This document shows, in pieces, positions 2,620 to 3,233 of a stretch of DNA of 4,411 nt. Origin of the DNA: Escherichia coli (GTDB lineage Bacteria; Pseudomonadota; Gammaproteobacteria; Enterobacterales; Enterobacteriaceae); NCBI RefSeq assembly GCF_003334385.1, contig NZ_QOWN01000086.1; one strand, written 5' to 3'. Within the stretch, counting starts at the first letter, position 1. Every line of letters begins with the position of its first letter. The translations under genes were made by a program, and so were the position numbers. The notes beneath the pieces are model-generated. The model was not told where the DNA came from and made no database searches. It saw only the letters and a program-made list of their open reading frames with translations.

Positions 2620-3233
2620 AGATAAATTCATTGTGTGTTATTAATGTATCTTTTATTGTTATTGATTTTTTTTTGCGATTAATAAAATATAATTTAGAAT
2701 ATTGCATGGAAATATAATATTGTGTATTTTGGAGCACTAAAAACACATCCAGCTAATGTTGTGACATATAAAAGTCATTGAGGTGATTCTTATCTCTTGT
2801 TTGGTTGTTTCTAAGCGAGAGTAAATGTCAAAAATATTCTTGTGGGTAATAGGTAAGTAAACATAACCTTTTGATAATTAGGGGGTGACTGCTTTTTTAT
2901 GAAACGTTACTTAGGAAACGCGTTTATCATCGATAGAAAAAAGTATTGTATAATATACATCTTCTCCTTTGCTTAGTCAATCAATGTGGAGTTTCCAGTA
3001 GGGATATGGAGAATACGACATCTTCTATGATTATTTGGTTTCATCATTGATTTTAAAATTAATTTTCATTTCAATGTTTTATTAAGAAAAGAAGAACGAA
3101 CGGGGGGATTATCAACATAATAAATCATTAATAAATATTGGTTATTCCTATATACATACTTGCGATATGCAACTATTGTGCGCCCATATTGTCATGAGTA
3201 AGTTTACTGTCATCTTATATAAACACATCGGCT
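2620..3233 (+). promoter_or_regulatory. ~600 bp very AT-rich non-coding region upstream of the AraC-family regulator; probable promoter/long leader and nucleoid-protein (H-NS-type) silencing region
   Basis: Abrupt drop to visibly very low GC from ~2620; no ORF with a credible start longer than 25 codons; a perfect TATAAT hexamer at 2949-2954 and a T9 run at 2666-2674. No promoter position can be assigned confidently in DNA this AT-rich. Long AT-rich upstream regions are typical of Rns/PerA/AggR-type regulator genes. Confidence 0.35.

Follow-up and report, generated by a model that had tools for sequence, protein, structure and literature searches.

The 4,411-bp stretch of Escherichia coli DNA analysed here (the window, along which all coordinates are numbered) carries the gene of a 277-amino-acid (aa) AraC/XylS-family regulator of the Rns/AggR type, which is preceded by a 627-bp non-coding AT-rich tract. 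On balance, this tract is probably what truncation by an insertion sequence (IS) has left of the native DNA 5' of an orphan activator gene of the AggR/Rns family, bearing promoter function and silenced by H-NS within a horizontally acquired island. Gene and flank together make up a single acquired unit of 1.5 kb and 29% guanine plus cytosine (GC), truncated by an IS3-family element at its left end and by an ISEc45-like one at its right. The tract would carry the promoter or promoters of the regulator, most likely weak, non-consensus sigma-70 sites such as those mapped for aggR, and H-NS would silence the whole island, not just the tract, until a temperature of 37 °C or the regulator itself lifts the repression, as happens with Rns, AggR and PerA. 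Translation would probably be inefficient because the start codon lacks a Shine-Dalgarno (SD) sequence, and the same is likely for aggR.

The regulator gene and its flank lie in one AT-rich island

The window is a mosaic of IS debris of ~50% GC (1 to ~2606), an AT-rich island (~2607-4109) and an ISEc45/IS110-like region (4110 on). Its central features are the following:

2450-2606, plus strand: 3' end of an IS3-family remnant, comprising the transposase C-terminus and the right terminus (blastn, alignment to an intact copy)
2607-3233, plus strand: non-coding AT-rich tract, 627 bp, 29% GC, presumed promoter/regulatory region (composition, open reading frame (ORF) and homology searches)
3234-4067, plus strand: AraC/XylS-family regulator, Rns/AggR type, 277 aa (phmmer, Pfam, NCBIfam)
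4110-4411, plus strand: ISEc45 (IS110-like) element region, the right boundary of the island (megablast, 94% to ISEc45 copies from 4110 onward)

The left edge of the native AT-rich DNA is the right end of the IS3-family element, at ~2606/2607. Positions 2450-2588 match IS3-family transposase genes at 87-88% (blastn), and in the alignment with an intact copy (L019, CP057892.1) the homology extends past the transposase stop up to ...CAGGCCACA at ~2606 and is then lost. Since the IS3-family right end stops at ~2607, the tract is a truncated stub.

The island (2607-4109) measures 1.5 kb and has 29% GC overall, ranging from 25 to 33%, between flanks of ~50%; its sole gene is the AraC-type ORF at 3234-4067. 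An earlier note had described the DNA upstream of this gene as a long, non-coding and extremely AT-rich tract. The description is accurate as far as it goes, with 29.0% GC in 2620-3233, a longest stop-free run of 49 codons across the six frames, and no curated family match for any of the small ORFs of the tract. As a special feature, however, it does not stand, because the regulator ORF is equally AT-rich (29.3% GC, against 49.7% in window positions 1-2599), and AT-richness is thus a property of the whole island. DNA of this kind, 1.5 kb at 29% GC, is a typical H-NS target in E. coli, so that binding of H-NS is likely, across the ORF as much as across the tract.

The gene encodes a putative full-length Rns/AggR-type activator

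In phmmer searches against the PDB, the best match of the regulator was Rns (E 4e-29 to 9e-29, residues 21-271 of 277 against Rns 11-263), followed by CsvR (2e-27) and ToxT (2e-14). The homology to Rns-type proteins is full-length, covering the N-terminal domain as well as the DNA-binding domain, and in the comparison with Rns it is strongest in the latter and weaker in the former; in the Rns N-terminal motif I12-M18, residue N16 is replaced by K26 in the regulator. A C-terminal AraC-type double helix-turn-helix (HTH) is present: PF12833 (HTH_18) and PF00165 (HTH_AraC) are the precomputed Pfam matches of an identical protein (P0001), and many NCBIfam AraC-type models match residues ~160-270. 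No NCBIfam equivalog cut-off was reached, the best being HilD with 107 bits against a cut-off of 354, and HilC, GadX and others falling far below theirs. Since none was reached, the protein appears, from its homology, to be a full-length Rns/AggR-type AraC activator of a distinct lineage. Its closest sequence relatives are uncharacterised AraC homologs of 40-48% identity. Like rns/cfaD of enterotoxigenic E. coli (ETEC), an orphan next to a transposase gene and pseudogenes (PMC9820224), the window gene is an orphan regulator unlinked to its targets, with transposase genes and pseudogenes around it.

Annotations differ in the start codon, the 277-aa form (ATG 3234) being found on 155 contigs and a 272-aa form (GTG 3249, codon 6) on 70. 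Alignment with homologs needs a start upstream of residue ~9, with which both are compatible. The earlier note had also seen no credible SD at the annotated start, and this was borne out: the duplex with the anti-SD sequence reached -1.7 kcal/mol at ATG 3234 and -2.7 at GTG 3249, compared with -12.9 for a canonical AGGAGG. Most regulators of the homolog loci, in contrast, have a good SD (-8.4 to -14.1 kcal/mol), and that of aggR is weak as well (-3.7 kcal/mol), so a weak SD is not unusual in the Rns/AggR family.

The perfect TATAAT is expected by chance and several promoter candidates compete

Attention had been drawn to a perfect TATAAT at 2949-2954. It is present as described, yet it is one of three on the same strand, and it lies among other promoter-like sequences:

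2949-2954, plus strand: perfect TATAAT of the earlier note, 280-285 nucleotides (nt) upstream of the ATG
2688-2693 and 2713-2718, plus strand: other perfect TATAAT hexamers (sequence scan)
2673-2700, plus strand: candidate distal promoter TTGCGA-16-TAGAAT, predicted start ~2707, leader ~527 nt (9/12 in the sigma-70 scan, 8.7 bits in the position weight matrix (PWM) scan)
3189-3216, plus strand: candidate proximal promoter TTGTCA-16-CATCTT, its -10 preceded by TG, predicted start ~3223, leader ~11 nt (8.7 bits, PWM)
2952-2980, minus strand: predicted sigma-70-like match TTGACT(2980-2975)-17-TATATT(2957-2952) (10/12 in the sigma-70 scan, 11.7 bits, PWM)
3160-3204, plus strand: 45-bp deletion in a metagenome contig (L007) that removes the candidate proximal -35 and leaves the ORF intact (locus comparison)

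Dinucleotide shuffles of the tract contained at least one TATAAT in 75% of cases (P = 0.75) and at least three in 13%, and across the whole window four were observed against 4.0 expected. The hexamer at 2949 is no more than chance expectation, and it carries no weight. No acceptable -35 accompanies it, the best being TTATCA at a 19-bp spacer, with 7.4 bits in a PWM whose values follow the classic sigma-70 compilations. The sigma-70 scan of 2500-3400 returned four sites, against 6.1 in shuffles, none of which uses this hexamer on the plus strand.

We calibrated these scores by running the same PWM on the aggR DNA of the O104:H4 plasmid pAA (L021), for which starts have been mapped at -216 and -126, giving leaders of 216 and 126 nt, along with an abundant orphan start at -508 that does not reach the gene (PMC5066232). 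The three starts corresponded to matches ranked only 6th, 8th and 10th, at 6.2-7.1 bits, and the mapped -10 elements are non-consensus, TAGACT, AAAAAT and TATTAT among them. The sole perfect TATAAT of the aggR DNA, at -657, matches none of the three reported starts (PMC5066232), so a perfect hexamer is not predictive in this family. The plus-strand candidates of the window, at 7.4-8.7 bits, fall in a similar, slightly higher range.

Could the 2949 hexamer nevertheless be the main -10 of the regulator, with a start at ~2961 and a leader of ~273 nt that holds regulatory information? The hexamer is perfect, a missing -35 is typical for activator-dependent promoters, a TATC lies 20 bp upstream (2925-2928), leaders of 126-216 nt are on record for aggR, and the 7.4 bits resemble the scores of the mapped aggR promoters. 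The TATC, on the other hand, breaks the published rule for AggR-dependent promoters, WWWWWWWTATC followed by a -10 21-23 bp later (PMC6392122), both in its 20-bp distance and in the four G/C residues within its 7-nt W tract. The hexamer also overlaps a much better match on the opposite strand, TATAATATA being nearly palindromic; the leader folds no better than its shuffles and has no Rfam match; and chance expectation and the aggR precedent speak against it as well. We consider both the assignment of this hexamer as the main -10 and the model built on it unlikely, and a long leader starting from it has no specific support.

A proximal promoter is somewhat less doubtful, though still only a tentative alternative. 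It would consist of TTGTCA(3189)-16-CATCTT, or of a TATATAAA box at 3216-3223, and would produce a near-leaderless mRNA, leaving the rest of the tract as silencing or spacer DNA. Its first version is joint best on the plus strand at 8.7 bits, the SD-less starts at 3234 and 3249 fit a leaderless or short-leader mRNA, and two relatives (L013, L016) have only ~209 bp between the AraC gene and the gene upstream of it. Leaderless mRNA is reportedly made for the related Shigella regulator VirF. Yet CATCTT is a poor -10, the TATAAA box lacks a usable -35, and the natural 45-bp deletion (3160-3204) takes away this very -35 while keeping the ORF intact; aggR, moreover, combines a weak SD with leaders of 126-216 nt.

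The distal candidate TTGCGA-16-TAGAAT is the only plus-strand tract site in the sigma-70 scan and shares the top plus-strand PWM score with the proximal one. The sequence alone does not single out a start: ~2707 would give a leader of ~527 nt, ~2961 one of ~273 nt and ~3223 one of ~11 nt.

Silencing and autoactivation are plausible by analogy

The earlier note had proposed a long leader with H-NS silencing and autoactivation. As a general pattern of the family this agrees with the literature: Rns activates its own gene through sites at -227, +43 and +82, AggR and PerA are autoactivated too, and H-NS-linked thermo-repression is described for the Rns family (PMC9820224), and leaders of 126 and 216 nt have been mapped for aggR (PMC5066232). 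Specific support in the sequence, from boxes, H-NS motif, phasing or leader fold, did not emerge. By analogy, then, H-NS silencing with autoactivation of the regulator is plausible.

Several results weigh against the reading of the tract as a promoter-bearing, H-NS-silenced flank. AggR/Rns boxes, defined as W7 with at most two mismatches followed by TATC and sought on both strands, are not enriched in 2607-3270 (5 against 5.5 ± 2.1 in shuffles), so that no counterpart of the rns arrangement at -227/+43/+82 can be assigned, and no AggR-type composite promoter was found on the plus strand in 2590-3300. With at most two mismatches, the H-NS high-affinity motif TCGATAAATT matches once against 2.4 expected. 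The curvature that had been suggested as a check was addressed through a parameter-free AA/TT phasing test, in which the power of A-tract helical phasing at 10-11.25 bp (0.54) did not exceed that of shuffles (0.59 ± 0.32, P = 0.46). Thus the tract yielded no sequence signature specific to silencing and autoactivation. In addition, the top promoter match on either strand, in both the sigma-70 scan and the PWM scan, is the minus-strand TTGACT-17-TATATT, which faces away from the regulator. The AT-rich DNA upstream of aggR extends over only ~200 bp, so that the 627 bp found here are not simply the family pattern. Conservation cannot be used for footprinting, because the lineage is almost clonal, the tract being nearly invariant across 10 loci, and because the nearest relatives share no upstream DNA. 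Finally, truncation by the IS may have removed original regulatory DNA.

The boxes that were found, their total being at chance, are these:

3242-3252, minus strand: AggR/Rns-type box TCACTTTTATC, just inside the ORF
2640-2650 and 2784-2794, plus strand: other AggR/Rns-type boxes
2621-2631 and 2932-2942, minus strand: other AggR/Rns-type boxes

An RNA thermometer, riboswitch or other structured leader was also considered and found to be unsupported. Neither 2961-3260 (z = +0.48) nor the start region 3150-3290 (z = +0.47) folds better than shuffles, an Rfam E-value scan of the whole window gave a single chance-level match that lies outside the tract, and there is no SD to mask.

The strong minus-strand match invites another explanation, namely that TTGACT-17-TATATT (start ~2945), which points toward the IS3 remnant, once drove a divergent neighbouring gene from which the IS3 insertion has since separated it, or gives rise to antisense or divergent RNA by which H-NS silencing of the regulator is modulated. 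Besides being the best sigma-70 match of 2500-3400 in two independent scans, it has a fimbrial operon upstream of the regulator on the minus strand, with only IS debris between; an orphan start upstream of aggR is documented (PMC5066232), and for hilD, pervasive transcription is reported to counteract H-NS (PMC9335307). Promoter-like sequences, however, abound in AT-rich DNA, and the four scan sites are fewer than the 6.1 of shuffles; downstream on the minus strand there is neither a terminator nor an ORF, except for a 63-aa ORF running into the IS; the chaperone gene of the fimbrial operon has its own adjacent AggR-type promoter candidate; and in relatives the upstream neighbour is co-directional rather than divergent. 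We judge a role for this leftward promoter to be improbable, more so than the plus-strand alternatives above.

Shine-Dalgarno-like motifs and tests for gene relics

The tract contains the following translation-like signals:

2778-2789, plus strand: SD-like motif UUGAGGUGAUUC, pairing with the 16S tail at -13.2 kcal/mol (anti-SD duplex scan)
2878-2889, plus strand: SD-like motif UUAGGGGGUGAC, -15.0 kcal/mol, holding a G5 at 2881-2885 (anti-SD duplex scan)
2899-2976, plus strand: ATG 2899 with a 25-codon ORF MKRYLGNAFIIDRKKYCIIYIFSFA, following the UUAGGGGGUGAC motif (ORF list)
3100-3111, plus strand: SD-like motif ACGGGGGGAUUA, -12.0 kcal/mol, holding the G6 (anti-SD duplex scan)

The G6 island that the earlier note had placed at 3103-3108 exists, at 3102-3107, one base away, and its length is the same in all loci compared. 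The tract has two runs of at least five G (P = 0.007 for its composition). Nowhere in the island is complementarity to the anti-SD stronger than at the three SD-like motifs, which are all on the sense strand of the tract, and three sites of -12 kcal/mol or stronger occurred in none of 400 shuffles (0/400), an observation made post hoc. No start codon occurs within 25 nt after ACGGGGGGAUUA, and the 25-codon ORF has no family match. An 11-mer within the 2878-2889 motif, GGGGGTGACTG, is identical to the ribosome-binding site (RBS) of the homologous regulator in L016/L017 (GGGGGTGACTGT-ATG). These motifs could be fossil ribosome-binding sites; they could serve an upstream ORF (uORF) or standby binding in a long leader; or they could be due to luck.

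The homolog loci give the first of these options a concrete form. The loci of WP_001088099.1 (pR9-658-3), of Klebsiella IncF plasmids and of pSTEC299_1 are likewise AT-rich upstream of the regulator, over 700-1000 bp, and adjoin fimbrial, SPATE (serine protease autotransporter) or dispersin-like genes. Their upstream DNA consists largely of a partner gene or pseudogene of ~160 aa that ends ~209 bp before the regulator, whereas none is detectable in the window. The partner, encoded on the same strand as the AraC regulator, has at its C-terminus an HTH that weakly resembles sigma-70 region 4 (Pfam PF08281, E 4e-5). The largest cluster of its family comprises 518 sequences and bears no informative source name; the family, a possible co-regulator module, appears to be uncharacterised. 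Its copies in the relatives are:

L016, 1320-1799: partner gene, intact
L013, 3672-4175: partner gene, intact
L017, 4234-4715: partner gene, frameshifted
L018, 4566-4877: partner gene, fragmented

The tract might then be mainly genetic debris, a decayed sigma-70-region-4-like partner gene or the 5' end of another gene, with the SD-like motifs as its fossil RBSs. The position of the partner gene in relatives, its decay in L017 and L018, the three strong sense-strand motifs and the 11-mer shared with a homolog RBS, which is followed by an ATG, all favour such an origin. A hidden Markov model (HMM) of seven partner members, however, scored 2.3 bits against the six frames of 2500-3300, the level of the negative control (1.9), known pseudogenes reaching 45-171. 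A relic of an AraC-gene 5' end, an idea prompted by the shared 11-mer and its ATG, found no support: protein HMMs of the AraC family gave only negative scores, nhmmer found no match, and Smith-Waterman alignments of the peptides were at P = 0.1-0.5. An nhmmer profile of RBS plus 5' end recognised the gene's own 5' end with 12.6 bits and nothing in the tract, and collinear direct repeats between the tract and the first codons of the ORF are at chance (P = 0.23-0.34 with a realistic search space). The upstream DNA of the distant homolog loci could not be aligned to the tract, and that of aggR shows no similarity to it. We therefore think it quite improbable that the tract is mainly debris.

The second option would make the motifs functional. 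A distal promoter, for example at ~2707, would produce a long leader in which the three SD-like motifs, one of them with the 25-codon uORF, recruit ribosomes and so gate the SD-less start of the regulator, perhaps in combination with H-NS and the predicted opposite-strand promoter at 2980-2952. We give this the lowest standing of all the explanations considered, slightly below even that of debris; if true, it would provide an AggR-type master regulator with a switch based on ribosome loading or on a uORF, a kind not described for the family.

Distribution and natural variants

Draft-genome and metagenome contigs that carry one of the two annotated forms of the regulator number more than 200. 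In a collection of 5.8 billion sequences, the closest protein beyond these is 48% identical, with nothing between 48% and ~100%, and in tblastn searches of plasmids the best matches have ~45% identity, none reaching 60%. The DNA of the island has no match among 72,556 PLSDB plasmids or 5,426 complete E. coli genomes. Because more than 200 draft or metagenome contigs stand against none in complete genomes and plasmids, these counts suggest that the carrier lineage is under-represented among finished genomes. In the literature on CS22-like enteroaggregative E. coli (EAEC), aggR variants and afpR, we found no description of the regulator.

Over a 1.8-kb region compared in 10 loci, single-nucleotide polymorphisms (SNPs) occur at 2623, 2684, 2752, 3111, 3314 and 3428, along with the one 45-bp deletion described above. 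A further locus, L020, has SNPs at 3144 and 3207, of which the C>A change at 3207 creates an in-frame upstream ATG and with it a 286-aa product (P0020). That this longer variant arose by a 13-bp deletion was ruled out, the contig showing the SNP at 3207 instead.

The locus resembles a divergent AggR-Aap-Aat-fimbria module

In ten loci (L001-L010), the regulator is surrounded by the same IS mosaic every time. The plasmid that carries the regulator is EAEC/ETEC-like and includes a chaperone-usher operon as well as a dispersin/Aat module, both of them present in L001-L003. About 3.5 kb upstream of it, on the opposite strand, is a chaperone (247 aa)-usher (812 aa)-pilin-like operon, and ~8 kb downstream are a dispersin-like gene and an aatP-like gene. 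Further features of the window and of locus L002 are:

804-1787, minus strand: IS91-family transposase ORF, in the IS debris left of the island
1945-2292, minus strand: 115-aa ORF without a Pfam or NCBIfam match, adjacent to the IS91-family transposase gene in every locus
L002, 18855-19311: predicted AggR-type promoter ATTAATTTATC-21-TATAGT, ~45 nt before the dispersin-like ATG (W7-TATC, 21-23 bp, then a -10)
L002, 6468-6570 and 3149-3206: weaker predicted AggR-type promoters, of the chaperone gene and of a 199-aa pilin-like gene, respectively

The dispersin-like protein matches PDB entry 2jvu (E 1.5e-19), is ~43% identical to Aap of EAEC and is 55% identical to a copy on pSTEC299_1, a plasmid that also carries a regulator homolog of 40% identity. 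The 20.8-kb locus holds 20 AggR-type composite sites, some of them sensibly placed, at the dispersin-like, chaperone and pilin-like genes, all as predictions.

The chaperone-usher operon itself (L002 2550-6468, minus strand) comprises, between flanking IS elements, a chaperone, an usher and a single FimG/StaE-like subunit. A gene for a separate major pilin was not seen inside the operon, which may be truncated or may have the 199-aa protein as its pilin.

The comparison with aggR on pAA of EAEC (for example NC_018666.1) is close in several respects. Both are genes of AraC/Rns-type activators with ~29% GC, bounded by IS elements; pAA is a virulence plasmid whose dispersin (aap), Aat and chaperone-usher fimbriae have counterparts at the window locus; and an AggR-type promoter is predicted at the dispersin-like gene here too. 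Judged by these homologies, the locus is a divergent sister to the EAEC module AggR-Aap-Aat-fimbria, and neither the lineage of the regulator nor the divergent dispersin/Aat/fimbrial module that goes with it seems to have been described.

Implications

That an AggR/Rns-type gene is preceded by an AT-rich flank with promoter-like hexamers is expected and ordinary, and how the regulator is switched on matters only if the module is a colonisation determinant. Molecular typing of EAEC relies on aggR or afpR together with aatA (PMC12584630). A third type of regulator, linked to an aap/aat-like module, could escape such typing.

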